Shown piece by piece: positions 1 to 30,219 of a DNA stretch of 32,000 nucleotides. Positions within the stretch are counted from its first letter, which is position 1. Each line of letters opens with the position of its first letter. The notes beneath the pieces are model-generated. The model was not told where the DNA came from, did no database searches, and saw nothing but the letters and a program-made list of their open reading frames with translations. The translations under genes were made by a program, and so were the position numbers. Source of the DNA: Haloferax volcanii DS2 (GTDB lineage: Archaea > Halobacteriota > Halobacteria > Halobacteriales > Haloferacaceae); assembly GCF_000025685.1 (NCBI RefSeq), contig NC_013967.1, positions 2,130,001 to 2,162,000 of the forward strand, in the 5' to 3' direction.

Positions 1-371
1 CATTCCAACCCTACACCAACGTTGCAACTAACGTTATATTCTTTGAAAAGGGCGATTCAACCGAGAAAGTGTGGTTCTATGACCTCCGAACAGAGATGGA
101 AAAAATCAAGAAAAGTAACCCTCTTACGGAAGAGCACTTTGAGGATTTCCTTGAGAATTTTGACTCTCGTGAAGAAAGCGAACATTATTTCTCTGTTTCA
201 ATAGAAGAAATTGAGGAGAACGAGCACACGCTCAGTTACAAGCAGTATAAGGAATTTGATGATGGTGATGAAGTTGCGCCTCCAGAGGAGCTTCTCACTG
301 AACTGCAATCTCTACAAGATACTGTTCGAGAGAATACAGAAGCGATTATGGATGAGCTGGAGGACGAATAA
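1..371 (+). CDS. hsdM: Type I R-M methyltransferase subunit HsdM, C-terminal fragment (5' end outside window)
   Basis: The frame is open from base 3. Translation FQPYTNVATNVIFFEKGDSTEKVWFYDLRTEMEKIKKSNPLTEEHFEDF... carries the conserved HsdM C-terminal block (TNV.FF.KG...VWFYDLR). The listed 69..371 ORF is only its GTG-initiated tail. Stop TAA 369-371 overlaps the hsdS ATG (TAATG). Confidence 0.8.
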   Translation, partial: FQPYTNVATNVIFFEKGDSTEKVWFYDLRTEMEKIKKSNPLTEEHFEDFLENFDSREESEHYFSVSIEEIEENEHTLSYKQYKEFDDGDEVAPPEELLTELQSLQDTVRENTEAIMDELEDE

Positions 372-1603
372 TGGATAGAGAGGATTTGCCTAAAGGATGG
401 AGACAATACGAATTAGGTGAGATATGCGAAATCATCATGGGTAACTCACCCCCTGGGGAGAGTTATAACGATGAGGGAGAGGGGGTACGTTTCTTGCAGG
501 GCCAAAATGAATTCGGGGAGAATACCCCTGATAGCGATAGATTCACTACCGAACCTTCGAGGATGAGTAAGAATGGGGATATATTGGTAGCTATCAGAGC
601 TACACCCTTAGGGATAGTAAACCAAGCAGATGATGAATATTGTGTAGGGCGTGGTGTAGCTGCATTAAGACCGAAGAAGAAGAAGCTTGATGGAAGATAT
701 CTCTACCACTACATGAAATACTGCAAAGAGAGCGAGTACTGGAGAAAGGTGAGTACTGGCAGTACCTATCCATCAATAACTAAGACAAACCTGCAGAATT
801 TGTCTGTCCCGCTTCCACCCTTGTCCGAACAGCAGAAAATTGCCGACAAGCTGAACTCCGTAATTAGGGGAGTGGACGAGACACGCGAAGTGAGTTCTGA
901 CGCTAAAGTAATTGAAGAGAATCTACTTCGGTCCTGCATTTCGGGGTTGATGCCAGAAAAGGAGGGTTCAACGTGTGAAACAGTCAAACTCGATACTGTC
1001 TGCGAAGTAATCCTTGGTAATTCACCCCCAGGAGAGAGTTACAACGAGGAGGGTGAGGGAATGCGTTTCTTGCAGGGGCAAAAAGAATTTGGAGAAAAGA
1101 CCCCTGTCAGCGATAGATACACTACTGACCCTTCGAAAGTAGGTAAGGAAGGGGACATTCTGATAGCTATCAGAGCAACGCCCTTGGGAATCATAAACCG
1201 TTCAGACGATACGTATTGTCTTGGGAGAGGTGTAGCAGGGCTAAGACCTGAAAAGAATCTCGATGGTGGATACCTCTATTACTATATGAAGATACAACAC
1301 GGATATTGGGAGAAAATCAGCAAAGGGAGCACATACCCCTCCATAACTAAGACAAATCTTCAAAATCTACCCATTCCACTTCCAAAGATTTCTAAACAGC
1401 AGGAAATAGCTGAACGTCTTGAATACATTGAAGCCAGAATAGACGATATTCATGAAGCATCGGAGCGAATGTCCGACATAATCGACGTACTCCCTGAGTC
1501 GGTTCTTTCAAAAGCATTTCAGGGAGAACTCATAGACGACGAATCCATAGAAGAGCGGGTCGTAGCGGTGCAGAGTGGGTTGGAGGAGTTTGAGCCCAAT
1601 TAA
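371..1603 (+). CDS. hsdS: Type I R-M specificity subunit HsdS with two near-identical target-recognition halves
   Basis: 410 aa. Each half ends in the conserved HsdS spacer helix: TKTNLQNLSVPLPPLSEQQKIADKL (nt ~778-852) and TKTNLQNLPIPLPKISKQQEIAERL (nt ~1348-1422). An SD-like GGAGGA sits at 358-363. The gene is coupled to hsdM by a 1-nt overlap. Confidence 0.9.
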   Translation: MDREDLPKGWRQYELGEICEIIMGNSPPGESYNDEGEGVRFLQGQNEFGENTPDSDRFTTEPSRMSKNGDILVAIRATPLGIVNQADDEYCVGRGVAALRPKKKKLDGRYLYHYMKYCKESEYWRKVSTGSTYPSITKTNLQNLSVPLPPLSEQQKIADKLNSVIRGVDETREVSSDAKVIEENLLRSCISGLMPEKEGSTCETVKLDTVCEVILGNSPPGESYNEEGEGMRFLQGQKEFGEKTPVSDRYTTDPSKVGKEGDILIAIRATPLGIINRSDDTYCLGRGVAGLRPEKNLDGGYLYYYMKIQHGYWEKISKGSTYPSITKTNLQNLPIPLPKISKQQEIAERLEYIEARIDDIHEASERMSDIIDVLPESVLSKAFQGELIDDESIEERVVAVQSGLEEFEPN

Positions 1604-1832: not shown

Positions 1833-2333
1833 ATGACAGGCAGCGGCTGGAAAGACTCAGTCAATATTCCAGAGTCGACCACGAAGGCCACCCTGTACTG
1901 TTCAGAAGATGATAAAGAAGAATGGGATCAAGAAGTGGAGGAGCAAGGCTACAGAAGCAGAAGCGCCTACCTCTACGAACTGATCCAAGAGGCACGCGCC
2001 TACAGAGAACAAGGGTTCCTCGCACACCACGAAAGCGAAGAACGGATCGAGGAACTCAAGCAGGAAATCGAACACCTAGAAAACCGGTTAGAGAACCAAG
2101 AACAGCAGAGCAGCGGCCGGACAAAGGTCGACGACGTCGACTTCCTCGAAAAATTCCTCGAAGAGACTTACAAGCCCCTCGACCAGATTCTCCGCGAAAT
2201 CGTAGAGAGCGGAGCCCTGGATGACTTGATCCGCAAACGAGTAGAGGATCAACTGTACTTCCTCGCGCAGCAAGATCGGGTAGAGTTCGAGCGGGGCCAC
2301 GGCTGGAAGCTGAAGAACAAGGGTGATTGGTGA
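1833..2333 (+). CDS. DNA-binding protein: N-terminal ribbon-helix-helix (CopG/Arc-like), central coiled coil, C-terminal winged-helix-like segment; possible excisionase/regulator
   Basis: 166 aa with a strong SD. ATLYCSEDDKEEWDQEVEEQGYRSRSAYLYELIQEA fits a strand-helix-helix RHH pattern. EERIEELKQEIEHLENRLENQEQQ is coiled coil. The C-terminus (QLYFLAQQDRVEFERGHGWKLK) is wing-like. Stop TGA 2331-2333 overlaps the integrase ATG (TGATG). Confidence 0.7.
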   Translation: MTGSGWKDSVNIPESTTKATLYCSEDDKEEWDQEVEEQGYRSRSAYLYELIQEARAYREQGFLAHHESEERIEELKQEIEHLENRLENQEQQSSGRTKVDDVDFLEKFLEETYKPLDQILREIVESGALDDLIRKRVEDQLYFLAQQDRVEFERGHGWKLKNKGDW

Positions 2334-3265
2334 TGGCGGATGACTGGTACGAGACGGTCTATGAGAACAAGCACGAATCGATTAACGAGTTCATCAAGAG
2401 GAAGCAGGTTACAGGCCGCAGTGAACGCACTCTCAACGCCTACAGCCGCATCCTCAAGAAATTCTACCACGAAGAATTTCCCGAATTAAGGCCTGAGGAC
2501 ACGGAGGTATTCCACATCGAGGATTACGTGATGAGATTGGCCCAGAGGGATCTAAGCCAGAACACGAAACGCCGTTACCTCGAATCACTCAGTGCGTTCT
2601 TCAGCTACGCGATGAAACGCCCCAGGTTCGAGAAAATAACAGGAAACCCGGCAGCAGTCGTCCTCGAAGAAATCCCCAAACAAGTACGAGACCGGCCGGA
2701 CTGCGCCACCTGGGAAAACGGCCGACAGATCATCCACAACATCTCCGACCCCAGAGACAAAACAGTCGCTACAGTACTCGCCAAAACCGGATGCAGACTG
2801 ACGGAGGCCCTCGAAATCCAGGTGGACGACCTAATGCTGGAAGAAGGATTCATCCGCCTCCGCAAAAGGAAAGGCGGGAAACAGACCGTCGTCCCCATCG
2901 ACCAAGAAACTATCAAGGCCATTCAGCGGTTCCAGTTCATCCGGAACGGACGCGGCACCGACTACCTCTTCGTCTCCATACGGGGAGAACGCGTCTCCAA
3001 AACCTCAGTACAGAGAGCAGTGAAGAAAGCTGCAGAAGAGGCCGGAATAATGGAGCCGGGAGAAGACAGGTTTCACAAGAAGTTCACGCCACACACCTAC
3101 AGAACCGTCTTCACCACCCTAATGCGAAACCAAGGAATGCCCGATCACATCCTACGCTACATCCGCGGAGACAGCAACGACGAAACAATGGACATCTACA
3201 CACGCGTAGACCGCAGCCAAGCCCGCCAACAATACCTCAACTGCATCAAAACCCTCGAACTCTAA
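2333..3265 (+). CDS. Tyrosine recombinase / phage-type integrase (XerC/D-like)
   Basis: Catalytic signature is present: box I R (AKTGCRLTEALEI), HTYRTVFTTLM (H-x-x-R), and GDSNDETMDIYTRV (nucleophile Y). The N-terminal SAM-like core-binding region is RSERTLNAYSRILKKF. The track ORF begins at TTG 2327, but ATG 2333 sits exactly 5 nt after GGTGAT (2322-2327). Confidence 0.9.
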   Translation: MADDWYETVYENKHESINEFIKRKQVTGRSERTLNAYSRILKKFYHEEFPELRPEDTEVFHIEDYVMRLAQRDLSQNTKRRYLESLSAFFSYAMKRPRFEKITGNPAAVVLEEIPKQVRDRPDCATWENGRQIIHNISDPRDKTVATVLAKTGCRLTEALEIQVDDLMLEEGFIRLRKRKGGKQTVVPIDQETIKAIQRFQFIRNGRGTDYLFVSIRGERVSKTSVQRAVKKAAEEAGIMEPGEDRFHKKFTPHTYRTVFTTLMRNQGMPDHILRYIRGDSNDETMDIYTRVDRSQARQQYLNCIKTLEL

Positions 3266-3441: not shown

Positions 3442-3837
3442 TTAGCTGAGAAGATCGTCAAGCCCTGACTTCTCAACGAATAACAAGGCCATCCCCACCA
3501 GAAACACGAGTACGAGGATCTGGCCGAGAACTCCAAACACAGGGTGAACAAGCTCCGAGATAACACTCGGTGCTATAGAAAACAGAATGAATCCCGATAC
3601 GACGAACCCCGCAGTATAGGGAATATTCCAGTTAATCGCCGCCGTGTAGATCCCAAGAAGAATTCCCCCGGTTAACAAGAGGTAAAGAATGCCGGCCATC
3701 ACAGGCCCCAGAAACTCCTTAGTAAAAGCTACAGCAACAATAACGCCGACAGAAGGAGCCAATAACTCACCAACAGCCCTCTCAACTCCGTGCGAACCTG
3801 AAGGCGGTGCCATAATGATTCTCACATAATCCTTCAC
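3442..3837 (-). CDS. Small integral membrane protein (about 4 TM helices)
   Basis: 131 aa from GTG 3837. Hydrophobic stretches include VGVIVAVAF, VMAGILYLLLTGGILLGIY, GFVVSGFILFSIA and LGQILVLVFLVGMALLF. A TTTTATAG element on the minus strand (~3850-3857) fits better with initiation at the internal ATG 3813 (MAPPSG...). Confidence 0.65.
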   Translation of the reverse strand: MKDYVRIIMAPPSGSHGVERAVGELLAPSVGVIVAVAFTKEFLGPVMAGILYLLLTGGILLGIYTAAINWNIPYTAGFVVSGFILFSIAPSVISELVHPVFGVLGQILVLVFLVGMALLFVEKSGLDDLLS

Positions 3838-3898: not shown

Positions 3899-4122
3899 CC
3901 ACAGTACAGTAGTTAGTTGCTACCCGTTCCAGACCTGACCCAGAGCTACTGTTCGGGGCTGGATAACCTGATCAGGCCTGTTTCCAGACTGATTTTCAGG
4001 ACTGCCGATCCAGATCTGTACTGTTTCTAGGTTGATTTTCGGAGCCGAACTCTAATGAGAGTTGATGGTAATATCTGTCGTAGAGTATGTCCCGCGGTCA
4101 CTATCCGGATCTAGATCTGTAT
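3899..4122. repeat. Cluster of direct and inverted short repeats upstream of and into the MTase-HEPN gene
   Basis: CCTGTTTCCAGACTGATTTTCAGGA (3977-4001) matches ACTGTTTCTAGGTTGATTTTCGGAG (4020-4044) at 19/25 positions, with a 43-bp period. A partial third copy GTTCCAGACCTGA is at 3926-3938. ACAGTACAG (3901-3909) is inverted at CTGTACTGT (4016-4024). GATC.AGATCTGTA occurs at 4007-4020 and 4108-4121. Confidence 0.5.
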
Positions 4123-6648
4123 ATGATTTCTGAGGACTTGGAAGAGCTCTCTGAAGTAGAGTCGACAGATTTGCGGGACGATGGGGTAGTTATTGAAACT
4201 GAGGGACCGTCCTTCTATATCTTCCTCCCTGGCGGACCTTGTGAACAAACAAAACAGATTCCTGAAGTTGCAGATCGACTGTTGGTAGCCGTTCAAACTG
4301 GATTCTTGGAATTCCACGGAGAAGATATCCTGCTCTATGAGTTGGGAGAGGACCACGACTACGGAGAACTTATCAGACAAGTCTTGACCGGGGAGGCCGT
4401 ACACGTAGAATTAGAGAGCGAGGAGGCCTCAGAAACGCTGTCCGAAGCCGGTTACGTACACGGCTATACACCACAAGCTATTGCGGAAATCCTCACAGGA
4501 TGGGCAATAACATCAGAAAACGACTCCGTCCTTGACTTCGCTACAGGATCGGGAACTCTACTCAAACAAGCTGCGACCTACCTCGACAAAGAAGGCCGCT
4601 TGACCGGAGTCGAGATACATCCCTTTATCGCTAAACTGGTAAAAAGCAGAGTAAGAGGCATAGACAACGCGGAAATATTCAATGAGGACTTCTTCGATTG
4701 GAGAACACCCGAACAGCTAGAGCTGGGCGAAGAAACTCAGGGAGAACACTCTTCCGAGAAATACGATGCAGTCGTCGGAAACCCGCCGATAACGGGCTTC
4801 CTTCCGCCAGAGCAACGAGAGAAAATCAGTGAGTGGACTCAAGGTAGAAGGCCTTCGCTTGCTGCTGCTTTCGTCGCTAAGGCGGTAACTCATCTCAAAG
4901 ACGGTGGGCGTGGTGCATTCGTACTACCGAAGAAGGCCTTGAAAGACGGCCTCTTGGAACAACTCACTGAATCATGCAGCATCCATAGAATTGTAGAGCT
5001 TCCGTTGGGAGTCTTTGCAGATGCTCACTCAGTAGAATTAGTCGTTCTGACCATGGTCAAGGAGGAGCGTGATCCTCAAGTCAAGGAGACCGGGATCGGC
5101 CGATTCAACCAGATGGAACTCCCCGAAAACGCACGAGGCCTTTTCCAACAACCGCTAGACGCCATACTCGAAAACAGGTACAATCCATACGATGCTGAAT
5201 TGGCGAAGGCCTCTCACGCGGACTTGGAAGGAAGAAATGTCTTGAGGATACTTTCTAACCCGTCAATCTATGACATCATCACGTCTGAAGGCTTCACTAA
5301 GCTTGGTGAGCTCTCCGGAGTCGAGATTGGGAGCGGCGTGTCTACAGGCAATAACGATTTCTTCTACTTTGATCCAAGTGAGAAAGAGGAATCAGGTATT
5401 GATGAACGGTTCTTCCGTCCTGTCATCAAGAATCCTCCCAGCGATATACGTTCTATATCTGAGGAAGTGATCGATCTGTATCTGCTGGATCTTACTCAGT
5501 ACGTGGAAGAGTTGAGGAGTGACGGCGTAGAGGTTACAGAAGAGAGAGTGCTTGAAGAGCTGGAGAATGACGGCTACACAGAACTGGTCGAATATATTGA
5601 GGACAGTCCTCTTCATCATCAAGGAAATGGACTCTCGTTTACTCCGAACTATCTTGGCAAGTTCCAGAATCCGGACTTGATTATACCTGAGTTTTTCGAT
5701 GAGCCTGTCTGCTATACTGTTGAGTTAGATGATGCAGTGTTTGATTCGACGGTGATCGGAGTCCAAGTTGATAGGGAACAACGCAGGGATGCTTTAGCGC
5801 GGCTACTGAATACTCCTCTCTACAGAGAATTCTTCCAAACATACGCTGAATCAATGGACTTGAACTGGTACCGTATCAACATCACCCAGCTAAAAGAAAT
5901 CCCGATTATTGAGCAGGCATTGAATGAGGATACATTCGAGAGACTGGAGCCTTTCTTCCCTCCAGAAGACGACAACGACCTCGTCAACCTGAACCATCTT
6001 CTGATTGAAAGCTGTGAGACAGAAGAGGAGAAGCAGGCCTTACGACGGTACTTAGCTTCAAGAGACAACTTTGCCTGGTCCTGGTTCTTGACTCTGCCTG
6101 AGTTTGAGGAGTTCCAAGAGCTTCTTGAATCTGATCGTGACCAGGCTCAAGAGTTCGTGGTCGACCGGTTTGATCAAGAGCTTCTAGACCAAGCACGTCA
6201 GACCTTCCGGAACGTCGAATTCTTTGAAGGCAGACGAGAGCTTCTAGACGACCTTCTTATGGAGTTCGAAGAAGGCCATTACAGAGGTTTTCTCGCCGGA
6301 ATTGTACTACAGTTTGAAGGAGTCCTCGGCGACCTGGTGGAGGAGGCTGGTGGTGACATCGTCGAGGAGGACGGTAAGACCGAATTCAAGATGCCAGGAA
6401 AGAACCGGTCACAGAAGCGAAAGAACCTGGATAACCTGATTTCACAGTTCTTCGATGGCGTATTCAGCGAATACCTGCATCAAACGGTTAGACAACGCCG
6501 AAACAAGATAGCACATGGAGATGTGATCGAAGACAGCCGCACACTGTCAATACACTTCTTCGTCTCCTTCTACGCTCTCTGCAATGCCTGCTTGAACGAA
6601 TACGTACGAATAGCACAGCAACAAGATTCAGAAGCAGCAGCAATCTAA
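4087..6648 (+). CDS. N6-adenine DNA methyltransferase (gamma-class, Eco57I/PglX-type with TaqI_C-like specificity region) fused to a C-terminal HEPN domain
   Basis: 853 aa. The AdoMet motif I is VLDFATGSGTLL (nt ~4544-4573). Catalytic motif IV is VVGNPPITGF (4771-4800). A TaqI_C-like segment reads GVEIGSGVSTGNNDFFYF. The C-terminal HEPN Rx4H motif RNKIAHGD has R at 6499 and H at 6514, preceded by helix HYRGFLAGIVLQFEGVLGDLVEE. The start could instead be ATG 4123 (MISEDLEEL). Confidence 0.85.
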   Translation: MSRGHYPDLDLYMISEDLEELSEVESTDLRDDGVVIETEGPSFYIFLPGGPCEQTKQIPEVADRLLVAVQTGFLEFHGEDILLYELGEDHDYGELIRQVLTGEAVHVELESEEASETLSEAGYVHGYTPQAIAEILTGWAITSENDSVLDFATGSGTLLKQAATYLDKEGRLTGVEIHPFIAKLVKSRVRGIDNAEIFNEDFFDWRTPEQLELGEETQGEHSSEKYDAVVGNPPITGFLPPEQREKISEWTQGRRPSLAAAFVAKAVTHLKDGGRGAFVLPKKALKDGLLEQLTESCSIHRIVELPLGVFADAHSVELVVLTMVKEERDPQVKETGIGRFNQMELPENARGLFQQPLDAILENRYNPYDAELAKASHADLEGRNVLRILSNPSIYDIITSEGFTKLGELSGVEIGSGVSTGNNDFFYFDPSEKEESGIDERFFRPVIKNPPSDIRSISEEVIDLYLLDLTQYVEELRSDGVEVTEERVLEELENDGYTELVEYIEDSPLHHQGNGLSFTPNYLGKFQNPDLIIPEFFDEPVCYTVELDDAVFDSTVIGVQVDREQRRDALARLLNTPLYREFFQTYAESMDLNWYRINITQLKEIPIIEQALNEDTFERLEPFFPPEDDNDLVNLNHLLIESCETEEEKQALRRYLASRDNFAWSWFLTLPEFEEFQELLESDRDQAQEFVVDRFDQELLDQARQTFRNVEFFEGRRELLDDLLMEFEEGHYRGFLAGIVLQFEGVLGDLVEEAGGDIVEEDGKTEFKMPGKNRSQKRKNLDNLISQFFDGVFSEYLHQTVRQRRNKIAHGDVIEDSRTLSIHFFVSFYALCNACLNEYVRIAQQQDSEAAAI

Positions 6649-6759: not shown

Positions 6760-9700
6760 ATGAGTGTATCTGTTGACTTTGATAATATCAGACCTGTTGA
6801 AGACTCTCGGAGAAAGGGCTTTGAGGAGTTATGTAGTCAAGTTGCCCACGAATTCGAAGACGTACCCGATACCTGGAAATATACACGCATAGGTGATCCT
6901 GATGCAGGAATTGAATGTAAATGGGAGTCCACTGATGGATCTGTATGGGGCTGGCAGGCCAAGTATGTCGATAATATAGACAACAGTAGCTTGTCTCAAG
7001 TTGATCGCTCTGTAAAACAAGCTTTAGAAAACTACCCTAATCTGAGCCGATACTTCGTCTGTGTTCCCTGCGATAGGCCACACAGCCCCCGTGAAGGTGT
7101 TAAAACTGCTCTTGAGAAATGGAATGATCGAAAAGAGAAGTGGGAAGGATGGGCCGAGGACGAGGGGATGGACGTGGAGTTTGTTTTCTGGGGACAGTCT
7201 GAGCTTTTGGAGTTTCTCAGCCAGGACAAGCATAAAGGAAGGATATATTTCTGGTTTGATTCAGAGCAGCTCACCGATGCCAAGCTTCAGGATGAGATGG
7301 ATGTGTCTATTTCTAATGCAAAGGACCGTTACAGTCCGGAACTGCACGTAGATACGGGTAATGCAGATATTTTTGAGCCGTTAGGCCGGACGCCTACTTT
7401 TGAAGAAGAGGTGGAAGAGCTTCTTGAGGAATTAGACGAGAAAGCAGGTAAACTGTTCACGGAAAAGCGGGTTGAAGTCCTAGAAGAGGCCGACGAAGAT
7501 GCTACCCTAGATCTCCGCGAGTCAATAGACAACCTTCCTAATCTGCTTGAGGATGTTGAGCGAATCCCTGAGGATATCCCCTTATCAGAACTACGTGATA
7601 CCTGTGAGAAAGCAGAGGAGGCAATTCGGGAATTAGAACCCCAGCTTCGAACGCTCAAGGAAGAAGCGGATGCAGAAAAAGACGAAGTAGAAACCCTTGA
7701 GAAGTCCACTCTCTATGATTTCCGTCAACTTCGGAAAGCCGTTACTGGTTTGAAAAATCATATCGATAGTAATGATTTCCAGGCTGCTGAAGACGCCGCG
7801 TTGAAAGTACTTGGGGATGCGGGAGTGGGTAAAACCCATCTGCTCTGTAACGTTGCTAAGAATAGAACCGAGAAGGGTTATCCAACGGTTCTCCTCCTCG
7901 GTGAGAACTTCAGGGACAGAGATATCTGGACGCAGATTATGGAGCGACTGGGCTTAGATTGCACCACTGAAGAATTCCTAGGGGCCTTGGATTCATTCGG
8001 CGAATCCCGCGGTGTTCGATCTCTATTGATGATCGATGCCCTGAATGAAAGTTCAAATCCTCGAATGTGGAACCGGCAGTTGCCAGGCATTCTAAGCAAG
8101 TTAGAAAATTATCCTCATATCAGCTTGTGCGTCAGCTGCCGGACTGGTTACGAGGAACTCATATTCCCTGATAGTACAGAAGAACAGTTTGTTGAGACCC
8201 AGCACTACGGGTTCAATAACGTAGAATACGAGGCTGTAAGAAAATTCTTTAATGAGCATGGTATTGAGCACCAGTCGATACCAGTTCTACGACGAGAATT
8301 CCAGATACCCTTGTTTTTGAAATTGTTCTGCGAAAACTTGGAGAACCGCGGTCAAAGCCGGATATCCCACGGTCCAGAAGGCATCAGCGAGATCTTTGAA
8401 GGATACATAGATGCGGTACATGACCGGCTATATCGCCGGTTGGATTACGATCCGAGCGATAATAAGGTGAGAAAAGCAGTAGAGGCCTTGGCACGTGAGA
8501 TGGCTAAGAAGGGAGAAGGCATGAAGAGGCTTCCTCGGAGTGAAGCAAAGGAAATCGTAGACGACCTATTACCGGGAAGAACCTACTCAGAAAGCCTTTA
8601 CAAAAATATTCTGAGTGAAGGGGTTATCTCAGAGGTAGTCCCCTTTGAGGAGGATGCAGAGGAGGCCGTCCGGTTCTCCTACGATAAATTTGCAGACCAC
8701 AAAATAGCTCAACAGTACTTAGAGCTCTACGTGGATGACGATATTGAGGAAGCTCTTTCAGAGACAGAGGAGCTACAGGAGATCTTTGAGAACCCAGAAC
8801 TGTACGCTGGGCTCATACAGGCCTTGTCTATCCATCTCCCTGAGAAGAAGGATGCAGAAATATTTGATTTTGTAGATTCAGAAGATATACTCAATCCATT
8901 CATTAAGAGCTTAGCTTGGCGGAATCCGGATACGTTGACAGATAGTGATGGAGAATTTAGTGAGGAGGTTGAAGATTATCTCTGGGAAGAGCTGGAGCTT
9001 CTTGATGACCTGCATGAGCTTTGGAGAGTCTTCCTTACATTGTCTACAAGCTCTGATCACCCGCTGAATGCTGAGTACCTTGATGAGGTTCTCAAAGACA
9101 AGGAAGTATTTAGGCGCGATTTCAATTGGTCCAAGTTCCTGCATGAAGAGTGGAGAGAAGATACGTCTGAGGTGTACCGATTAGTCAACTGGGGATTCTC
9201 TTTAGAAAATCGGCCTGTGGAGTCGTACGAACTGAAGCGGTTAATGTCGATTACTCTCTCCTGGTTCTTTTGCTGTCCAAACAGACATGTTAGAGACCGG
9301 TCGACAAAGGCTATAGTCAATGTCGTAGACTCTGATCTTGAACTCTACAGTGAGTTGGTTGAGCGTTTCCAAGATGTTACTGATCCATATATTTTGGAAC
9401 GGGTCTATGCAGCAGCTTATGGCGGAGTTCTCCGACATAAACAGGATGAAGCAGTTACTGACGTTGCCGAGACCGTGTACGAATTAGAATTTGAGGACAA
9501 CGACCCGACTCCTCACCAGCTCTCAAGAGATTATACGAGAGGGATAATCGAGGTGGCTAACCGTTTGAATGACGGGTTCGACGTTGAGATGGAGAATGTG
9601 AGGCCTCCTTATGACAGTTCTTTCTCTATCGATGTTCCTTCGTCTGATGAGCTTCGTGAGCAAGTTGAAAGCGTCTTAGAGGACTCTGATACTGATTTGA

Positions 9701-10953
9701 ACTCGCGGTTTTGGTGGGGGCTTGTAGGTTCTGACTTTGAAGGACGTGGACACAGTGATTTTGCTCGGTACATTGTTGGAACGAATCATAGTCCTTCTGA
9801 CGTCCATGGTTACGATTTCTCCGGAGAGAAGGCGCTTCGTTGGATTACCAAGCGAGTATTTGACTTGGGCTGGAGACCTGATCTTTTCGGATCGTTCGAT
9901 GACTTTGTCAACCGGAGCTATATGGGTAGGATGGAGAATCGAAAACCGGAGCGGTTCAGTAAAAAATACCAGTGGATAGCCTATCACGAATTGGTGTCTT
10001 GGGTTACGGATAACTGTGATTTCACAGGTTCAATTACAGAACGGCCGTATAATGGGCCTTGGATGCAATTTGACCGGGATATTGACCCTTCGGTACTAGA
10101 TCCTCAAGCTGATTCCGACGTTTCGTTAGATGAGGTTGTAGAATATGATTGCCGTATAGATGAGACTGATTTAGAGGAATGGATTTCAGACCACGAGGAG
10201 TTCCCTGACTTGGTTTCCTTGTTAGATATTTCCGTGGATGGTGAGAGATGGATACCTCTGCATGGTATTTATAAGTGGAGAGCAGACGAGGGCGAAGACT
10301 CCAGACTTGAGAGAGACGTTTTTGCCCGGATAGATACTGTTACAGTAGCTACTGAGAAGAAGGACGAATTGGTGTCTTGGTTAAAGGAGGACTGGGTTGA
10401 TAGCGATGAGCTTGAGAGCACTCCGTTCCACTTGGCTACATTTACTCAGACTTTCTGGGCGGAATATCCCTGGCACCCTTCGATAGAGGAGGGCTGGGAA
10501 GAAGACGTAGATTCTATCCGAGGAGCACCGGTTTCTACGACAGACACCACTGTTGATTTACTCTGGGAGTCAGAGTATGACTGTTCCGTGGACGAGAATT
10601 ATGGGATGTATGCTCCGTCCCCCCCACTTGCGAAATCGCTCGATCTCGAATGGGTAGTTGATTCAAAGGAATTCGTGCAAAAAGGTTCTAACCCTGTTCG
10701 TGTAGCCGATGTGTCTACTTCCGAAGGGTTGTACGACAGAGTGAACTCGCTTTCAATGTTAGCAGCAAGTGAAGGGATAATCGAAGAGTTAGAGGAAGAA
10801 GAGCTTTCCTTGGTTTGGATTATACAAGGAGAGAAACGGCTACTTACTGATGATGCTGCAGGAACCGGAATGGGTCTTAGTCAGATTAGAGCAGTCTACT
10901 ATCTAGACGAAGGAGAGTGGACGGGAGAAATGGACAGCGGTTACTACAACTGA
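6760..10953 (+). CDS. Giant STAND/NACHT-like P-loop NTPase with N-terminal PD-(D/E)xK-type nuclease-like domain and ~900-aa C-terminal putative sensor region (Avs/NLR-like architecture)
   Basis: 1397 aa. The N-terminus reads GFEELCSQVAHEF...GDPDAGIECKWES..WGWQAKY (nt ~6891-6965), giving an E...D...E-x-K / Q-x-K pattern. An acidic coiled coil follows. Walker A is LGDAGVGKTHLL (nt ~7811-7846), Walker B is LLMIDALNES (~8024-8053), and ISLCVSCRTGY is sensor-1-like, as in NACHT hhhTSR. Confidence 0.85.
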   Translation: MSVSVDFDNIRPVEDSRRKGFEELCSQVAHEFEDVPDTWKYTRIGDPDAGIECKWESTDGSVWGWQAKYVDNIDNSSLSQVDRSVKQALENYPNLSRYFVCVPCDRPHSPREGVKTALEKWNDRKEKWEGWAEDEGMDVEFVFWGQSELLEFLSQDKHKGRIYFWFDSEQLTDAKLQDEMDVSISNAKDRYSPELHVDTGNADIFEPLGRTPTFEEEVEELLEELDEKAGKLFTEKRVEVLEEADEDATLDLRESIDNLPNLLEDVERIPEDIPLSELRDTCEKAEEAIRELEPQLRTLKEEADAEKDEVETLEKSTLYDFRQLRKAVTGLKNHIDSNDFQAAEDAALKVLGDAGVGKTHLLCNVAKNRTEKGYPTVLLLGENFRDRDIWTQIMERLGLDCTTEEFLGALDSFGESRGVRSLLMIDALNESSNPRMWNRQLPGILSKLENYPHISLCVSCRTGYEELIFPDSTEEQFVETQHYGFNNVEYEAVRKFFNEHGIEHQSIPVLRREFQIPLFLKLFCENLENRGQSRISHGPEGISEIFEGYIDAVHDRLYRRLDYDPSDNKVRKAVEALAREMAKKGEGMKRLPRSEAKEIVDDLLPGRTYSESLYKNILSEGVISEVVPFEEDAEEAVRFSYDKFADHKIAQQYLELYVDDDIEEALSETEELQEIFENPELYAGLIQALSIHLPEKKDAEIFDFVDSEDILNPFIKSLAWRNPDTLTDSDGEFSEEVEDYLWEELELLDDLHELWRVFLTLSTSSDHPLNAEYLDEVLKDKEVFRRDFNWSKFLHEEWREDTSEVYRLVNWGFSLENRPVESYELKRLMSITLSWFFCCPNRHVRDRSTKAIVNVVDSDLELYSELVERFQDVTDPYILERVYAAAYGGVLRHKQDEAVTDVAETVYELEFEDNDPTPHQLSRDYTRGIIEVANRLNDGFDVEMENVRPPYDSSFSIDVPSSDELREQVESVLEDSDTDLNSRFWWGLVGSDFEGRGHSDFARYIVGTNHSPSDVHGYDFSGEKALRWITKRVFDLGWRPDLFGSFDDFVNRSYMGRMENRKPERFSKKYQWIAYHELVSWVTDNCDFTGSITERPYNGPWMQFDRDIDPSVLDPQADSDVSLDEVVEYDCRIDETDLEEWISDHEEFPDLVSLLDISVDGERWIPLHGIYKWRADEGEDSRLERDVFARIDTVTVATEKKDELVSWLKEDWVDSDELESTPFHLATFTQTFWAEYPWHPSIEEGWEEDVDSIRGAPVSTTDTTVDLLWESEYDCSVDENYGMYAPSPPLAKSLDLEWVVDSKEFVQKGSNPVRVADVSTSEGLYDRVNSLSMLAASEGIIEELEEEELSLVWIIQGEKRLLTDDAAGTGMGLSQIRAVYYLDEGEWTGEMDSGYYN

Positions 10954-10966
10954 AACAGGGCGGCAG

Positions 10967-11383
10967 TTAGATCTTCTTCTGAATCTGCTTCTTAAACAAC
11001 CTGAATGATCCCTTTAGTTCCTCTAACTCATCTTCAACAGTCTTCACCCGCTCGACAACCTCACGGTGACTCAAATCCTCGTACTCAGTCATACTCTCTG
11101 GCTCCGACTGCTCCAAGTACCGGTGGGCTTTCCCCGTGAGCTTTGCTTCTTTGGGGTGTTGGAAGACTCTTTTTTGGCCGTCGATAACCCGCTCTACCAT
11201 CTTATCTGGTTTCTCTACGGTGATTAGGCCTAGATCTTCCAGTTTTTCGAAGCAGTAGGAGACGTGGTGGTTTTCGAGTGTGGTTTCTGCGGTGATTTTC
11301 TGGACGTCGTCGAGGCCTTTTTCGATGTGTTTCAGGACGACGTGGTCCTTGTCCCGTATCTCCTCGAATTCTTCTTCAGTCAT
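10967..11383 (-). CDS. Winged-helix (MarR/ArsR-like) DNA-binding protein with C-terminal coiled coil; last gene of the T4SS-like operon
   Basis: 138 aa. VLKHIEKGLDDVQKITAETTLENHHVSYCFEKLEDLGLITVEK...KLTGKAHRYLE fits a wHTH pattern. ATGA overlap with the upstream ATPase gene. Confidence 0.75.
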   Translation of the reverse strand: MTEEEFEEIRDKDHVVLKHIEKGLDDVQKITAETTLENHHVSYCFEKLEDLGLITVEKPDKMVERVIDGQKRVFQHPKEAKLTGKAHRYLEQSEPESMTEYEDLSHREVVERVKTVEDELEELKGSFRLFKKQIQKKI

Positions 11384-13299
11384 TCTCCTTCAAGTAGGAC
11401 GCATTGCTGTTCGAGTTCGGTGCAGAATCCTTCTTCGTCGCGGTGTAGGCAGAAGGCCTCTAAGTCGTCACGGCTGTTTGCATCGAGTTCTGGGCATTCT
11501 GGTTCGACAGCTTCGTTGTGTACTTCCAAGTTGTCTTCTTTGACTTCGATTACCCGGTATTCTGCTTCTTCTAGTTCTTCGAATTGGGTGAAGGCCTCGC
11601 TGTTTTCGTCGGTGTAGTAGCTGTAGCTGCCTTGTTCGTCGTTGTATTCGTTGCCGCGGCGGTTTTTGGGGTCGTCGACGATGTTCTGAAGTTTCGCTGC
11701 TTTCCCCTGCTGGACGACGTAGAAGACTTCGCGGTCTTCTTCGACGGCTCGTTTGAGGTTGCGTAGGACTTTGACGGGCCGGGAGAGTGTGCTGTGTTCT
11801 GCTTCGAGGTGTGCGATCTCTCCGTTGGGGAGGTGTACGTGGCCGTCTGGTTTGTTGTCGCCTGTGTCTTGGTACAGTAGGTTGACTTGGAAGCCGCGTT
11901 CCTCCAGTTGTTTCTTGGCTTGTGCGAGGAGTTCTCGGTGTTTGTCTCCGCCGGCGTTGTTTCCTTTTCCGAGGCTTTGGGAGGCCTTGATTTGGGCTTT
12001 TGTTTGGGTGGTTGCGGCGGTGCCCTGTTTTTTGAGTTTGTCGATGTCGGTGTTTTCGGGTTTCCAGGGTGGGTAGGTGTTGAAGAGTACGGCGGAGTTG
12101 TGGCTTTGTTTGCTGGGTTTCTGGACTGCTGCCCGGAACTTGCCTAAGGCTTTGAGCTGGTTTTTGGAGAGGCCTTGGAACATTCCGGCGATCTGGGTTT
12201 CGTTTTCGCTGCCACTGGGGTTGAAGGTGATTTTGGTGCGGCAGTTGTTGACGACTGCTCTCCGCATGTCGGTTGCGAGTTGTTGGAGGTATTGTGTGGC
12301 GAGCCAGCACCCTAAGCGGTATTCTCTGGCTTCGCTGAGTATTTTGGTGAAGTTGCTGCCTTCGCCGCCGAAGTTCTGGAGTTCGTCGACGTAGAGGAAG
12401 AAGGGTGTGCGTTGTTCGACGGGCTGGGTGACCCGGCTTTGTGTTGCGGCCCAGATTTTGGTGGTGACGATGCTTCCGACGAGTTGGGAGACTGTTTCTC
12501 CGACTTCGCCTTTTTGGATGTCGACGAGGAGGATTTTCCCTTGGTTGACGACGTCGCGGAAGTTGACTCCGGATTGTTCTGGGCCGATCACTTTCCGGAT
12601 GGTGGGGTTCATCACGAAGTCGTTTAGCCGGCGCTGGAGAGGTTCCATCTCATACGAGGTCATGTCCTCTTTGACGCGGACGAGTTGCTCTCGGATGATC
12701 TGGTCGTCGGTGTCGTCGATCAGCTCGGTGAGCTGGTCTTGGTTGACGACGCATCGGAAGACGTCGAGCAAGCTGTTTCCCTGATTCTTCTGGATGTTGA
12801 GGTCGAGGTGGGCCCGCAGGAGGGTTTCGAGGACTCTTCCGAACTGGTCACCCCAGTTCTCCGACTGGCGTTTGAACAGGTCGATGAGGTCGGAGACGAT
12901 GATCTCTTTCTGGTTCTCTCGCTGGGCCTCCGACATTTCCTCGGTGATGTGAGGTTCGAGGACGTTGATCGGTGTAACCGGGTCTCTAGCTGGATTGATG
13001 TAGACGACGTCGTCTCTCCTGTTTTCGGGTAGTTTGGAGAGGAATTCGTCTATTAGGTCGCCTTTCGGATTGATGATTGCGAGGCCGTGGTCTTTCTCTG
13101 CGTCCTGTAATGCGACGTGTATCAGTAGCTGCGTTTTGCCGTATCCGGTGGGGCCGACGTTGAGGACGTGAGTGAGGCGTTTTTCGTCGTCTACTCCGAT
13201 GTTTTCTTCGACGCCGAGGTTGCTTTCACGGCTGCCGAGATAGGTGGTGTTCAGGTTGCCTGTGCTCTGTATCAGGTTCTGGGTTTCTTCGGGGTTCAT
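11380..13299 (-). CDS. Conjugative coupling-protein-like ATPase (FtsK/HerA superfamily; VirD4/TraG/TcpA-like) with C-terminal restriction-endonuclease-fold-like domain
   Basis: 639 aa. Walker A is NVGPTGYGKTQL, followed by LAIINPKGD. Walker B is FFLYVDELQNF, and WLATQYLQQL is also present. The C-terminus reads GGDKHRELL...DGHVHLPNGEIAHLEAEHS...LRNLKRA. No N-terminal TM segment. 4-nt overlaps on both sides. Confidence 0.8.
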   Translation of the reverse strand: MNPEETQNLIQSTGNLNTTYLGSRESNLGVEENIGVDDEKRLTHVLNVGPTGYGKTQLLIHVALQDAEKDHGLAIINPKGDLIDEFLSKLPENRRDDVVYINPARDPVTPINVLEPHITEEMSEAQRENQKEIIVSDLIDLFKRQSENWGDQFGRVLETLLRAHLDLNIQKNQGNSLLDVFRCVVNQDQLTELIDDTDDQIIREQLVRVKEDMTSYEMEPLQRRLNDFVMNPTIRKVIGPEQSGVNFRDVVNQGKILLVDIQKGEVGETVSQLVGSIVTTKIWAATQSRVTQPVEQRTPFFLYVDELQNFGGEGSNFTKILSEAREYRLGCWLATQYLQQLATDMRRAVVNNCRTKITFNPSGSENETQIAGMFQGLSKNQLKALGKFRAAVQKPSKQSHNSAVLFNTYPPWKPENTDIDKLKKQGTAATTQTKAQIKASQSLGKGNNAGGDKHRELLAQAKKQLEERGFQVNLLYQDTGDNKPDGHVHLPNGEIAHLEAEHSTLSRPVKVLRNLKRAVEEDREVFYVVQQGKAAKLQNIVDDPKNRRGNEYNDEQGSYSYYTDENSEAFTQFEELEEAEYRVIEVKEDNLEVHNEAVEPECPELDANSRDDLEAFCLHRDEEGFCTELEQQCVLLEGE

Positions 13300-14267
13300 G
13301 GCTGAGCGTTTTGGATGTTGTCCTGTTTCCGATTCGGGAGTGAGAGAAGAGCTGAGAGCTCGTCCTTGGTAGCCTGGAATTTCTGGCTCCAGCCCTGGAA
13401 CTCTCTACGTTGGACTGCCTGTGCGAAGGAAAGAATCTGGCTGCGGCGGAACGGTGTTACCGTGGTCGCGTTCAGGTACTGGCCTGTTTCCGGGTTTTCG
13501 TAGGTGTTGAACGCTCCGGAGATCTCTTTAACTCTGCTAGGCGTGTACTCGGCTGCATTGATGATGAGCAGCCTGATCGAGACGTGGAATCGGGGGCTGC
13601 CAGCCTTGTTCTCGATTGCGTCTGCCTGTTTCTTTTCCCGCGGTGTTGGAGGCCTTGACCCCCAGAGTTTCTCTTTCTCTCTCCGCAGGTGGCCGATTCG
13701 CTGGTAGGCCCGTTTCCGCCAGTAGTAGCGACGTAGAGGTTGGCCGATAACCGGTCGGAAGAGGATCTGGATTACGAACCGGGTGTTCTGCATTGCGTGG
13801 CGGTGGAGTGCTGCGACTACCGAGTCCACCGGTGGTTGGTCGAAGCTGGTCTTCAGTGGGTACCAGTCGGTTCTTCCCGCGGTGAGCAGGCCGCCGCCTA
13901 CAGTATCCTCTTCACGGATTGGTAGGCCGTTGACTCCTTCTTTGAGTTCGACGTGTGGTGTGTCGTTTGTGAGGTGTGTCCGGATTTTTCGTTCGAGGCG
14001 TTTAGTCGGGGCTGCGTACTGGAACTGGAGTTTTCCGGGTGTGGTGCGGCGGATTTCGTACGCTATGGTCGGTGACGTGTTTTTCAGGCCGAGGTACTTG
14101 GTCTGGTATTCGAGTACTCCATCTGCCAGGTTTTGCAGCTTGCTCGGTGTGTCTTCGTCTCTCGGTGGCCGGGCTTCGACGGTGTACGGCAGTTTGGTTA
14201 CCCCCGTAGCCAAGTTCTCTGCCGTGTCTTCGTCGAGCTCGGCGTGGTTGTACCGGAGAACGGTCAC
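13296..14267 (-). CDS. Hypothetical protein of the T4SS-like operon (basic central segment)
   Basis: 323 aa. GTGA and ATGA overlaps with both neighbours. No motif I can name. Confidence 0.7.
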   Translation of the reverse strand: MTVLRYNHAELDEDTAENLATGVTKLPYTVEARPPRDEDTPSKLQNLADGVLEYQTKYLGLKNTSPTIAYEIRRTTPGKLQFQYAAPTKRLERKIRTHLTNDTPHVELKEGVNGLPIREEDTVGGGLLTAGRTDWYPLKTSFDQPPVDSVVAALHRHAMQNTRFVIQILFRPVIGQPLRRYYWRKRAYQRIGHLRREKEKLWGSRPPTPREKKQADAIENKAGSPRFHVSIRLLIINAAEYTPSRVKEISGAFNTYENPETGQYLNATTVTPFRRSQILSFAQAVQRREFQGWSQKFQATKDELSALLSLPNRKQDNIQNAQP

Positions 14268-14617
14268 GGTTCTAGGGCGAGTATTTCTTCGTTCTCGTGA
14301 TTGTTCTCCAGTTCTTGGACCTGTTGCTGCATGGCTTGGGCCATCATCTGGTTCTGACCTTCCAGGGATTGGGCGAGCTCCTGCATTTTCTGCATAAGGG
14401 CCTGTGTTTCCTGGAATTCGGCCTTCATTTTCTGCATCCGTTTCTGGGCGAGAGCTTGGAAGAGCTGTTCTAGGTTTTGGGATTGGACTTGTTGCGGGGT
14501 GCTGTGTTGGAGTTCGTTGATGTCGATTTGGATGTCTCCGCTTCCTTGGGAGACGACTGTGACGTCGGTGTTTCCGTTCTGGTTCGAGATCTGGATTCGG
14601 GTTTTCTGGTGGTTCAT
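14264..14617 (-). CDS. Gln-rich coiled-coil protein
   Basis: 117 aa with a Q/M-rich heptad-like C-terminal half (QALMQKMQELAQSLEGQNQMMAQAMQQQVQELE). 4-nt overlaps with both neighbours. Confidence 0.65.
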   Translation of the reverse strand: MNHQKTRIQISNQNGNTDVTVVSQGSGDIQIDINELQHSTPQQVQSQNLEQLFQALAQKRMQKMKAEFQETQALMQKMQELAQSLEGQNQMMAQAMQQQVQELENNHENEEILALEP

Positions 14618-16380: not shown

Positions 16381-16628
16381 AGGTACCTCCCGGCGAGGAA
16401 CCGGATACTGCGGATGATGTGGTGGTCCAGCGGCTGGCTAAACGGCCTTACAGCGTAGAGAATGGCCCCGAGCAACAGAGCCAGAACGAGGTAGATGTAG
16501 GCGTCTGTGAGAACCGCTGCTGTTGCTACGGGCAGAGCAAGTCGGAGTACATCCTTCCAAGTGAACCGGCCGAAGAACTGCATAGAGACGTCTTCAACCG
16601 TTCCAGGGAACTGGAAGCGAGGTTTCAT
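16377..16628 (-). CDS. Small 2-TM membrane protein, VirB3/PrgI-like by position and topology
   Basis: 83 aa. FFGRFTWKDVLRLALPVATAAVL and YLVLALLLGAILYAV are hydrophobic segments. It lies immediately upstream of and overlaps the VirB4-like gene. Confidence 0.6.
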   Translation of the reverse strand: MKPRFQFPGTVEDVSMQFFGRFTWKDVLRLALPVATAAVLTDAYIYLVLALLLGAILYAVRPFSQPLDHHIIRSIRFLAGRYL

Positions 16629-29178: not shown

Positions 29179-30219
29179 ATGAGCGAGGATCAATCGTCAG
29201 AGACGGAAGAGTCAGAACAAGATGTTGATGAGTCTGATTTTGGGACTCAGTCATCTGATTTACGAAAATCTCTGGTTGTGGGACAGGACTTGAGAGCTGC
29301 TTTACAGAGCATCAATCAGATGCAGAGGGAGGTTGCGGAGGCTGCTAGACCGATTCGTGAACTCCAGGATTCGTTGGAATCTGCTACCCAGCCACTTCGT
29401 GATGTCCAGCAGACAATGGATGCAGTAACTCAGCCATATGCGGAACTCCAGCAAACGATCAGTGCTGTTCAGAGTGCGAGAGCCATTGCTGAGGCATATA
29501 ACCAGCAATGGGAGTCGATTCGTGAGCCACTGAGGGAGCTTCGAAGTCAGATACAGGTTGCGGTTGAGGAGCAGATTACTCTGGAGATGCCGTGGGAATA
29601 TGATTCGGTTGAGCCGACACCTGCTGCTAAATCAACTGCAGAGAGTTGGGTTGAACATTTTATTGAGGACTTCGAAGATGTCGAAGATGAGTATTTTGAG
29701 CTGATGATTGACCGTGTTGAAGATGGTCTGGAAGATTTCCGGAATGAGCCTGATCGGCCTTATGCTGCTATTCATATTTTCATCTCAATGCAGGATGCCT
29801 TGCTTTGGTGGCTTTGCTATCAAGACGATGAGATTTCTACAGAGGCAACGAATGAAATTGGGCTTCCAAAGTACGGAACTGATGAAAAGCAGGACGCACT
29901 GAGAAAGTACTATGCGGCATATTTCAACGTAGAGGGAGGAGACTCAGGCACATTCACGGACTACAAATGGGACTGCTTCTGGGCTCACCGACACGCGATA
30001 ATGCACGGTGATCTGTATGCTACCTATGATATGAATATCGCTACAACAGCAATGTTGTTCTTCGCTCTAACAGCACACTCTGTTCTTCAGGTGATTGCTG
30101 ATAAAGACGAAGCAGGAGAAGATATTCCCTCAATTATGGAAGAGATCAGAGAAGCGAATGAGGAGATTGAGGCAGAGGATGTTGATGCCGGTGAGGCACT
30201 GGGCGCATTCTTATCATAA
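29179..30219 (+). CDS. HEPN-domain protein with N-terminal 13-14-aa tandem repeats
   Basis: 346 aa. AAAAATAT (29147-29154) lies ~27 nt upstream. The Rx4H motif WAHRHAIMHGD has R at 29989 and H at 30004. It resembles the HEPN C-terminus of the 4087 gene (RRNKIAHGD). Repeats ARPIRELQDSLES / ATQPLRDVQQTMDA / VTQPYAELQQTISA span 29344-29466. Confidence 0.75.
   Translation: MSEDQSSETEESEQDVDESDFGTQSSDLRKSLVVGQDLRAALQSINQMQREVAEAARPIRELQDSLESATQPLRDVQQTMDAVTQPYAELQQTISAVQSARAIAEAYNQQWESIREPLRELRSQIQVAVEEQITLEMPWEYDSVEPTPAAKSTAESWVEHFIEDFEDVEDEYFELMIDRVEDGLEDFRNEPDRPYAAIHIFISMQDALLWWLCYQDDEISTEATNEIGLPKYGTDEKQDALRKYYAAYFNVEGGDSGTFTDYKWDCFWAHRHAIMHGDLYATYDMNIATTAMLFFALTAHSVLQVIADKDEAGEDIPSIMEEIREANEEIEAEDVDAGEALGAFLS

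Follow-up and report, generated by a model that had tools for sequence, protein, structure and literature searches.

HVO_2275 of Haloferax volcanii, a candidate HEPN RNase effector on a methyltransferase-like scaffold

What is the role of a protein that joins a body resembling a DNA methyltransferase (MTase) to a tail resembling an RNase? This question is raised by HVO_2275, encoded in a 32,000-nucleotide (nt) stretch of DNA, hereafter the window, which is part of island Halfvol4 on the main chromosome of Haloferax volcanii DS2 and has a low GC content (44-56%). HEPN RNases are a main class of suicide/dormancy effectors in prokaryotic immunity, and a preliminary description made from the sequence had proposed that HVO_2275 links such a domain to an N6-adenine DNA MTase, i.e. 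a hybrid between self-marking of the restriction-modification (R-M) kind and RNA cleavage of the abortive-infection (Abi) kind. Our analysis points elsewhere. We give roughly even chances to a reading in which HVO_2275 is a HEPN RNase effector built on a decayed MTase/target-recognition domain (TRD) scaffold, the scaffold now serving a regulatory or sensing role.

Domain layout of HVO_2275 and its C-terminal module

The gene is an uninterrupted open reading frame on the forward strand (4087..6648, +), whose 853-amino acid (aa) product is identical to ADE03738.1 of H. volcanii; the locus tag HVO_2275 is taken from PMC12091111. The frame and all motifs quoted in the preliminary description are present. 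Five parts follow each other on the + strand. An N-terminal β-rich domain (aa 1-115, 4087..4431), the fastest-evolving part, has predicted strands at 24-85 in the AlphaFold 2 (AF2) model (pLDDT about 80-88) and no Pfam match. It is followed by a class I S-adenosylmethionine (SAM)-dependent MTase-like core (aa 116-330, 4432..5076), which matches Pfam N6_Mtase and in which motifs I-III are present and motif IV is degraded, and by a target-recognition-type domain (aa 331-640, 5077..6006), recognized by alignment with CamA/BseCI and a sub-threshold TaqI_C match. A conserved helical linker/adaptor (aa 641-715, 6007..6231; 'FAWSWFLTLPEFEEFQ') then leads to the HEPN-type core (aa 716-853, 6232..6648), recognized from AF2 secondary structure, invariant residues and Foldseek. 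The full-length AlphaFold model has a pLDDT of 64.5 overall, with good confidence over aa 10-330 and low confidence across much of the TRD region (aa 331-640). As previously described, no nuclease domain is visible by Pfam in HVO_2275.

The last ~210 aa are predicted by AF2 to be helical with one β-hairpin insert. A separate model of aa 640-853, of moderate confidence (pLDDT 72, pTM 0.70), contains four long helices (711-728, 732-753, 792-809, and 817-852) and places the hairpin (757-779) between helices 2 and 3, which is the canonical position of HEPN inserts. The order of elements in the core is a helix, a second helix carrying QFEG (6310-6321, +), the β-hairpin insert, a helix ending with RRNKIAHG (aa 804-811, 6496-6519, +), and a long final helix. 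HEPN domains are defined by an Rx4-6H motif with N, D, or H after the R, and by a conserved acidic residue upstream (Anantharaman et al. 2013, PMC3710099). HVO_2275 displays this motif with a polar residue after the R (R805-N806-K-I-A-H810), and E744 is a conserved upstream acidic residue, outside the typical Ex3[KR] context. Considering that shuffled versions of HVO_2275 contain on average 0.98 Rx4H motifs, with at least one in 64% of them, a lone Rx4H is at chance level, and the argument for HEPN therefore rests on conservation and structure.

Conservation at this site is strict. In 24 full-length homologs (49-93% identity), no variation is seen at R804, R805, N806, A809, H810, and G811, nor in L-Q-F-E-G at 741-745. 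In a broader 21-sequence alignment, which takes in stand-alone proteins from non-halophiles and extends to 21% identity, the sole invariant residues are R716, Q742, G745, R805, H810, and G811; E744 and N806 are nearly invariant, position 744 being E or D in all 21 sequences. All remote and stand-alone relatives retain R-[N/D/S]-x3-H-G. The preliminary reading of RRNKIAHGD as a HEPN signature is thus upheld, both by the invariance of its R, H, and G residues and by a HEPN-compatible topology. When the C-terminal model was compared with the PDB using Foldseek, the best matches were HEPN proteins, i.e. Csm6 (E 0.036, prob 0.92), the HEPN protein AF_0298 (prob 0.84, TMt 0.63), and, weakly, AbiV. 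Pfam gives sub-threshold matches at the R-x4-H site to HEPN_RiboL-PSP for HVO_2275 (E 0.25) and to HEPN_MAE_28990 for its relative P0077 (E 0.07). Sequence conservation and the structural model make it very probable that the C-terminal module is a HEPN domain, one that belongs to an unclassified family and retains its active-site signature intact.

About 60 relatives have the same MTase-HEPN fusion. Along the protein, mean pairwise identity amounts to 0.30 in the N-terminal domain, 0.53 in the MTase core, 0.60 in the TRD, 0.69 in the linker, and 0.73 in the HEPN core. Because the HEPN signature is the strictest and identity rises toward the C terminus, the HEPN module is likely to be the selected catalytic part. 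Its signature survives wherever MTase motifs are lost, and stand-alone forms of the module occur both in haloarchaea and in non-halophiles. The haloarchaeal form is a 223-aa gene in four metagenomic contigs (L027-L030; L027:2714-3385) that consists of linker and HEPN core only. Its product is 93% identical to the C terminus of a clade represented by P0031, and no MTase remnant was found upstream of the gene in these contigs. A codon comparison from a gapped alignment with the full-length gene of contig L013 gave a pN/pS of 0.12 at a pS of 0.51, indicating purifying selection. Since this HEPN-only gene is kept under selection, the MTase-like body is dispensable in at least one lineage. The linker accompanies the HEPN core in the 223-aa protein and also in bacterial relatives of 300-520 aa. 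By sequence comparison, the HEPN module is the constant part of the family.

Some relatives deserve separate mention. P0031 itself (865 aa), on a 1.27-Mb contig labeled Haloferax volcanii, is a second family member, 51% identical to HVO_2275 and with VPPA as motif IV; it presumably comes from another strain, and its clade pairs with a 1502-aa STAND protein with transmembrane (TM) helices. The homolog in Haloarcula amylolytica (L001:8001-10555) is split near residue 52 into two frames, the database protein being 754 aa long, and this copy is probably frameshifted or decaying. A bacterial relative, P0083 (523 aa, L033:2539-4110), is flanked by a PIN/RHH toxin-antitoxin pair on either side, and no STAND is nearby. 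A megablast search of plasmids found nothing.

A methyltransferase-like body with a degraded motif IV

Within the body, Pfam identifies N6_Mtase at aa 115-330 (E 6e-17), Eco57I (E 2e-8), weaker generic MTase families, and a cross-match to RrnaAD (29 bits). Foldseek matches of the full-length model are CamA (E 2e-15), M.BseCI, and M.TaqI, with E values for these three ranging from 2e-15 to 1e-10, and HsdM proteins; those to CamA and BseCI span about 600 aligned columns, TRD included. A profile of the 24 homologs searched against the PDB retrieved M.BseCI (E 5e-10) and one HsdM. Because of these fold and profile matches, aa ~115-640 is assigned, at the level of a predicted structure, to the monomeric gamma-class adenine MTase fold with its own TRD, of the CamA/M.BseCI/M.TaqI type. 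Pfam and AF2 therefore agree with the preliminary description that an N6-adenine-MTase-type domain and a TRD are covalently fused to the helical tail, whereas its assignment to the PglX/Eco57I type is not sustained. PglX was rejected, as its PADLOC match is partial and reaches only 15.5 bits (E 7.6e-4), and so was a type IIG enzyme, as the fold matches monomeric gamma-class enzymes and the Eco57I match is confined to the catalytic core. Neither BREX genes (PglZ, BrxC, or BrxL partners) nor a fused nuclease were found in the window or related loci. A TRD does lie behind the catalytic domain. The TaqI_C-like segment previously noted within it is real as far as its hallmark is concerned (GSGVSTGNNDFFYF, aa 415-428, 5329-5370, +), the T-G-x-N-x-F-F-Y-F motif being retained in most of the superfamily, but the Pfam TaqI_C match of the isolated middle segment stays below threshold (E 0.006).

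The catalytic motifs have fared unequally. HVO_2275 has the class I SAM-MTase fold with motif I (xxGxG; LDFATGSGTLL, aa 149-159, 4531-4563, +), motif II, and motif III. In the close clade of 24 homologs, D150, G154, and G156 of motif I, E/D176 of motif II, and D/N201 and F202 of motif III are conserved, which makes SAM binding plausible. In contrast, motif IV (GNPPI, aa 231-235, 4777-4791, +) reads N-P-P-I and departs from the canonical (D/N)-P-P-(Y/F/W). All 24 close homologs have I, M, A, V, or S as its fourth residue, and none has Y, F, or W, while its first position is V, A, or S in 5/24. Remoter relatives, collected by an exhaustive profile search, have HPP[A/T/S/V] or DPP[I/V]. In hidden Markov model (HMM) alignments, the Tyr of NPPY in BseCI and the Phe of NPPF in HsdM align to the aliphatic position of the family. 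Decay has gone further in five proteins of about 900 aa (P0068, P0069, P0071, P0072, and P0073), in which motifs I and IV are unrecognizable; all five keep the HEPN site, and most also retain a "GGRGAFVLP" scaffold and the TRD hallmark. Pfam scans of two of the five, P0068 and P0072, found no MTase.

Published methylomes bear on the same point. A multi-R-M deletion strain of H. volcanii has no methylation detectable by single-molecule real-time (SMRT) sequencing, and HVO_2275 is absent both from the REBASE-based list of R-M genes and from the genes that were deleted (Ouellette et al. 2018, PMC5867850). Active self-marking, as initially proposed, is consequently doubtful, motif IV being non-aromatic and the strain showing no detectable methylation. 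Across the family, the body is probably losing catalysis while its fold stays, as judged from the alignments, and the labels "N-6 DNA methylase", "HsdM family", and "TrmN6" that HVO_2275 and its homologs carry are probably misleading.

Genomic neighborhoods and STAND NTPases

The gene neighborhoods examined, which represent about 19 distinct locus types of genomic and metagenomic origin, are all mobile or defense islands. Since these neighborhoods differ, a conserved operon partner for the whole family was rejected. Integrases lie directly upstream in the window, L011/L012, L013, and L016, and type I R-M genes are near in the window, L001, and L011. Other island neighbors include McrB-like and UvrD/PD-(D/E)XK proteins (L006), a PLD nuclease and a prokaryotic Argonaute (pAgo; L007, L011), CARF (L008), SMODS, SLATT, and Nmad3 (L015, L016, L018), and GmrSD (L002). 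A conserved 360-aa protein with a TPR-like C terminus takes the +1 slot in three contigs (L011:7978-9060 and L007:10585-11694, 68% identity), and a 762-aa Piwi-domain pAgo lies a few genes beyond it (L011:13480-15768, L007:15669-17957).

One type of neighbor recurs. In 6 of the ~19 locus types, the gene is followed, after 65-250 nt and in the same orientation, by one for a STAND NTPase; four STAND lineages are represented. In the window it is HVO_2276 (6760..10953, +), a 1397-aa Avs2-type STAND NTPase (PADLOC Avs2, 1459 bits) identical to ADE03084.1, annotated as Avast type 2 in PMC12091111, and starting 111 nt downstream of HVO_2275 in the same orientation; the preliminary description included neither this gene nor the recurrent pairing. 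HVO_2276 has an extra N-terminal domain of ~180 aa with a D...E-x-K pattern seen by eye only, and identification of its N-terminal 187 aa as a known nuclease was rejected, there being no Pfam or PDB sequence match. The second lineage is a 1234-aa Avs2 type (L002, 10683-14387; L014, 4582-8286; L019) that shares 26% identity with HVO_2276 and whose match to the Avs2 profile begins only at position ~175; it is devoid of the first ~180 aa, hence of an N-terminal effector domain. The third is a 1502-aa nSTAND (L013/L024) with four N-terminal TM helices and a Dsr1/Avs7-like C terminus. The fourth is a 1369-aa AAA_16 STAND (L027:3483-7592) whose NTPase begins at residue 17 and whose sensor is of the same Dsr1/Avs7-like type, and which directly follows the HEPN-only 223-aa gene in L027-L030. 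In two of the four lineages, the protein opens directly with a helical extension or the NTPase and has no N-terminal effector domain. Between the window and L014, which align collinearly at 91-96% DNA identity on either side, the STAND gene has been exchanged for a non-homologous one, with a breakpoint at the stop codon of HVO_2275. Among the other large neighborhood proteins scanned, there was no STAND except for one AAA_16 protein 2.5 kb away in L009. The gaps between HEPN and STAND genes contain TATA-like sequences, so co-transcription is not implied. According to a 2026 preprint, the family combining STAND with a Dsr1-type sensor (Avs7) normally bears one of at least 20 N-terminal effectors, and in one Streptomyces protein the same sensor is fused to a HEPN-like RNase. 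Judging from this pairing, some Avs-type receptors may rely on an effector encoded by a separate gene.

The remainder of the window is typical of a mobile island. Upstream of HVO_2275 lie rmeS (HVO_2271; 371..1603, +), a full-length PADLOC match to the specificity subunit of a type I R-M system, and a tyrosine integrase (2327..3265, +; Pfam Phage_integrase, E 1.5e-27) that is syntenic with the HVO_2275 homolog in L011 and L012. The RmeS system, which is active (Ouellette 2018, PMC5867850), is located 2.5 kb from HVO_2275. A very hydrophobic 131-aa open reading frame (3442-3837, -) is upstream of and divergent from HVO_2275, and a 59%-identical homolog in Haloarcula amylolytica (L001:10580-10957, -) is found on the 3' side of the homologous gene. 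Beyond HVO_2276 there is a block resembling conjugation or type IV secretion systems (11380-17704, -), with a TraG/TrwB-type coupling protein (11380-13299) and an AAA_10/HerA-like ATPase (14614-16380). This block has a GC content of 52-56% and a strongly negative AT skew vs flanks of 44-50% GC, i.e. the island is compositionally mosaic. Further genes encode a DUF932 protein (21827-22816, +), a DUF2254 membrane protein (23551-25278, +), a second, weakly matching HerA/DUF87-like ATPase (25250-27352, +), a second tyrosine integrase with a zinc ribbon (27826-29139, +), and Orc1/Cdc6 (30851-31873, -).

Between the last two genes lies one encoding a 346-aa protein with a coiled-coil N terminus and a HEPN-like C terminus (29179..30219, +), recognized by an invariant motif and previously described as carrying a domain similar to that of HVO_2275. 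In its family, which is confined to haloarchaea, W-A-H-R-H-x-I-M-H-G is invariant, and the distance from it to an "ISMQDALL" helix is similar to that between QFEG and RNxxxHG. When aligned with the HVO_2275 module by hhalign (profile-sequence and profile-profile), the motifs are in register at a probability of only 8-9%. The similarity holds at the level of the HEPN-like motif only, and the protein is plausibly another HEPN-type protein, but recurrence of the same domain was rejected.

A possible mechanism, its alternatives, and known systems

How might such a protein work? We predict the HEPN module to act as an RNase that needs no metal and relies on R805, N806, H810, and E744. The MTase-like/TRD body, which would no longer mark DNA, may bind a ligand (DNA and, in the HVO_2275 clade, probably still SAM) as a regulator or sensor and hold the HEPN module off until an infection cue arrives. 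Two HEPN modules would then pair, as HEPN RNases generally require, and cut RNA, thereby arresting the cell or blocking virus gene expression in an abortive-infection manner. What the data show directly is the architecture of HVO_2275, its pattern of conservation, the decay of its motifs, its setting in a defense island, and, from published work, that no residual methylation was detected; we infer the RNase activity, the role in defense, the sensor role of the body, and activation by dimerization.

Several points weigh against this reading. RNase activity, toxicity, and antiviral protection are so far predicted only, for every family member. The fold evidence for HEPN is weak, Foldseek having no match below E 1e-3 from a model of moderate confidence (pLDDT 72), and no Pfam HEPN model scores above threshold (E 0.07-0.25, with the isolated C terminus searched to E 10). 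HMM searches of PDB sequences with narrow and wide C-terminal profiles yielded chance matches only (Afp9, PAP4, and PPAT). HVO_2275 itself keeps motifs I-III and the N-P-P of motif IV, and, going by these sequences, may methylate weakly, under certain conditions only, or on a target other than DNA. The methylome offers indirect evidence, as it was obtained under laboratory conditions only, in a strain in which HVO_2275 may not be expressed. At 0.60, identity in the TRD is fairly high, an unusual feature if this domain is a fast-evolving sensor of invaders. Finally, a mass spectrometry record (PMC12091111, Table 5) lists four HVO_2275 spectra in a wild-type fraction vs three in the Halfvol4-deleted strain. 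The latter should be impossible unless peptides were misassigned or carried over, and because the deletion control gives similar counts, we rejected this record as evidence of expression.

The main alternative, a tentative one that is compatible with a HEPN effector on a decayed scaffold, is a two-gene system in which the HEPN protein acts in trans as an exchangeable (co-)effector of the downstream STAND, here the Avs2 protein HVO_2276. A viral protein would be sensed by the STAND, which would oligomerize and recruit or activate its HEPN partner; the MTase-like body would be accessory. This would account for co-oriented STANDs of four lineages at +1, 65-250 nt away, in 6 of ~19 locus types, set against ~13 of 19 with no adjoining STAND. 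It would also suit the two lineages that have no N-terminal effector, a part with which Avs7 homologs have been reported, and the Streptomyces fusion of an Avs7/Dsr1 sensor to a HEPN-like RNase; HVO_2276, however, has its own extra N-terminal domain of ~180 aa, and Avs2 proteins tested elsewhere function as single genes (PMC13601566). That the large proteins scanned nearby are otherwise non-STAND, save the AAA_16 protein 2.5 kb away in L009, that the HEPN-only 223-aa gene is found only beside a STAND and is under purifying selection, and that the STAND is exchanged at the stop codon of HVO_2275 between the window and L014 all speak for a functional pair. Yet adjacency in islands can stem from shared hot spots, several loci share ancestry, and the TATA-like sequences in the gaps leave co-transcription unimplied. 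We think it rather improbable that both this trans-acting role and a second input hold together, i.e. that the family forms a split, two-signal Avs with a portable HEPN subunit used by STANDs and a pseudo-MTase that reads DNA (e.g. its methylation state) or SAM. If so, RNA would be cleaved only when viral protein and nucleic-acid/metabolite signals coincide, which would explain effector-less STANDs, and this would be the first MTase fold recruited as an immune sensor for an RNase and a split Avs in an archaeon.

That HVO_2275 is an active m6A DNA MTase marking self DNA, covalently joined to an RNase as an R-M/Abi hybrid, strikes us as unlikely. Conserved motifs I, II (E176), and III (D201, F202) in the 24 close homologs, the retained N232-P-P, a fold matching active MTases (E 2e-15), and the active type I R-M system 2.5 kb off would all be expected of such an enzyme, but the aromatic residue of motif IV is missing in all members and the catalytic N/D in many. 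Moreover, no methylation is detected in the multi-R-M deletion strain, though HVO_2275 is outside the deletion list and missing from the REBASE-based lists of Ouellette et al. (PMC5867850), and a lineage devoid of the whole MTase keeps the HEPN gene under selection. A role outside defense appears more doubtful still, whether as a Halfvol4 addiction/stabilization module with a HEPN toxin restrained in cis or as a non-catalytic RNA-binding HEPN domain on an RNA-modifying enzyme. The former is in keeping with integrases beside the gene in several loci and with P0083 sitting between PIN/RHH toxin-antitoxin pairs, but Halfvol4 can be deleted without reported loss of viability (PMC12091111). The latter finds an echo in the 29-bit RrnaAD cross-match and in known catalysis-free HEPN domains (PMC3710099). 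Such domains, however, typically lose the R/H motif (PMC3710099), which is invariant in the HVO_2275 family, and a patchy, island-bound distribution is ill-suited to a housekeeping RNA enzyme.

The HEPN effector on a decayed scaffold would sit oddly with what has been cataloged. According to a 2013 survey, the HEPN domains found in R-M systems are joined to nucleases, helicases, and ATPases, 'but not to the methylases', and HEPN-M/DUF86 are 'occasionally fused to nucleic acid methylase domains' (Anantharaman et al., PMC3710099). Recent work placed HEPN on the DUF499 ATPase of Hma/BREX-related systems, not on the MTase. We found no literature description of a MTase-HEPN fusion, of an inactive-MTase defense sensor, or of the HVO_2275 family and its HEPN tail, in a search that left subscription journals mostly outside its coverage. 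The family would be a conserved exception to the methylase rule of the survey, one that would be explained by a methylase that is no longer an enzyme. It offers an evolutionary series from a nearly intact MTase, through one devoid of both its SAM and its catalytic motifs, to complete absence of the body, which would illustrate how a modification enzyme turns into a sensor or scaffold. The same logic of motif decay is seen in METTL14, a pseudo-methyltransferase with EPPL instead of DPPW, in which an aliphatic residue stands in for the aromatic one and the fold is kept, no longer for catalysis but for nucleic-acid binding or scaffolding; the likeness ends there, as METTL14 is a subunit of the eukaryotic RNA m6A writer, with no HEPN domain and no role in defense. 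Archaeal immunity beyond CRISPR is little explored, and the predictions for HVO_2275 are directly testable in H. volcanii, a species with tools for gene deletion, a strain free of methylation, strains deleted for proviruses and for Halfvol4, and at least one virus that infects it.

Among known systems, PrrC/EcoprrI resembles HVO_2275 in coupling a HEPN RNase to a recognition machine of the DNA-MTase type, the PrrC anticodon nuclease being held by the type Ic EcoprrI complex and thought to be released upon infection (PMC3710099). HVO_2275 also lies 2.5 kb from a type I R-M operon, and L001 and L011 have type I genes nearby. HVO_2275 departs from PrrC in having its HEPN module covalently joined to a monomeric gamma-class MTase-like body instead of HsdM/S/R, in lacking an ABC-ATPase domain, and in an MTase-like part that is apparently catalytically decayed. 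Its aa ~115-640 have the same fold and order of domains as CamA, M.BseCI, and M.TaqI, with motifs I-III and the TRD hallmark also in common; HVO_2275 differs from these enzymes by NPPI vs NPPY, an extra N-terminal β-rich domain, a 210-aa C-terminal HEPN module, and the absence of in vivo methylation attributable to it (PMC5867850). The Avs2 and Avs7/Dsr1 systems are comparable in that a HEPN gene lies directly upstream of such STANDs, but here HEPN is in a separate gene, usually with a large MTase-like body, and most members have no STAND neighbor. HVO_2275 can also be compared with sensor-coupled HEPN effectors such as Csm6/Csx1 (CARF), RloC/PrrC (ABC ATPase), ApeA, Tha, and AbiV, in which an Rx4H HEPN domain likewise lies at one end of a larger regulatory protein found in defense islands. 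What sets HVO_2275 apart from these is that its regulatory body is a MTase/TRD scaffold, and the family would accordingly be a HEPN defense effector with a novel pseudo-enzyme partner domain.

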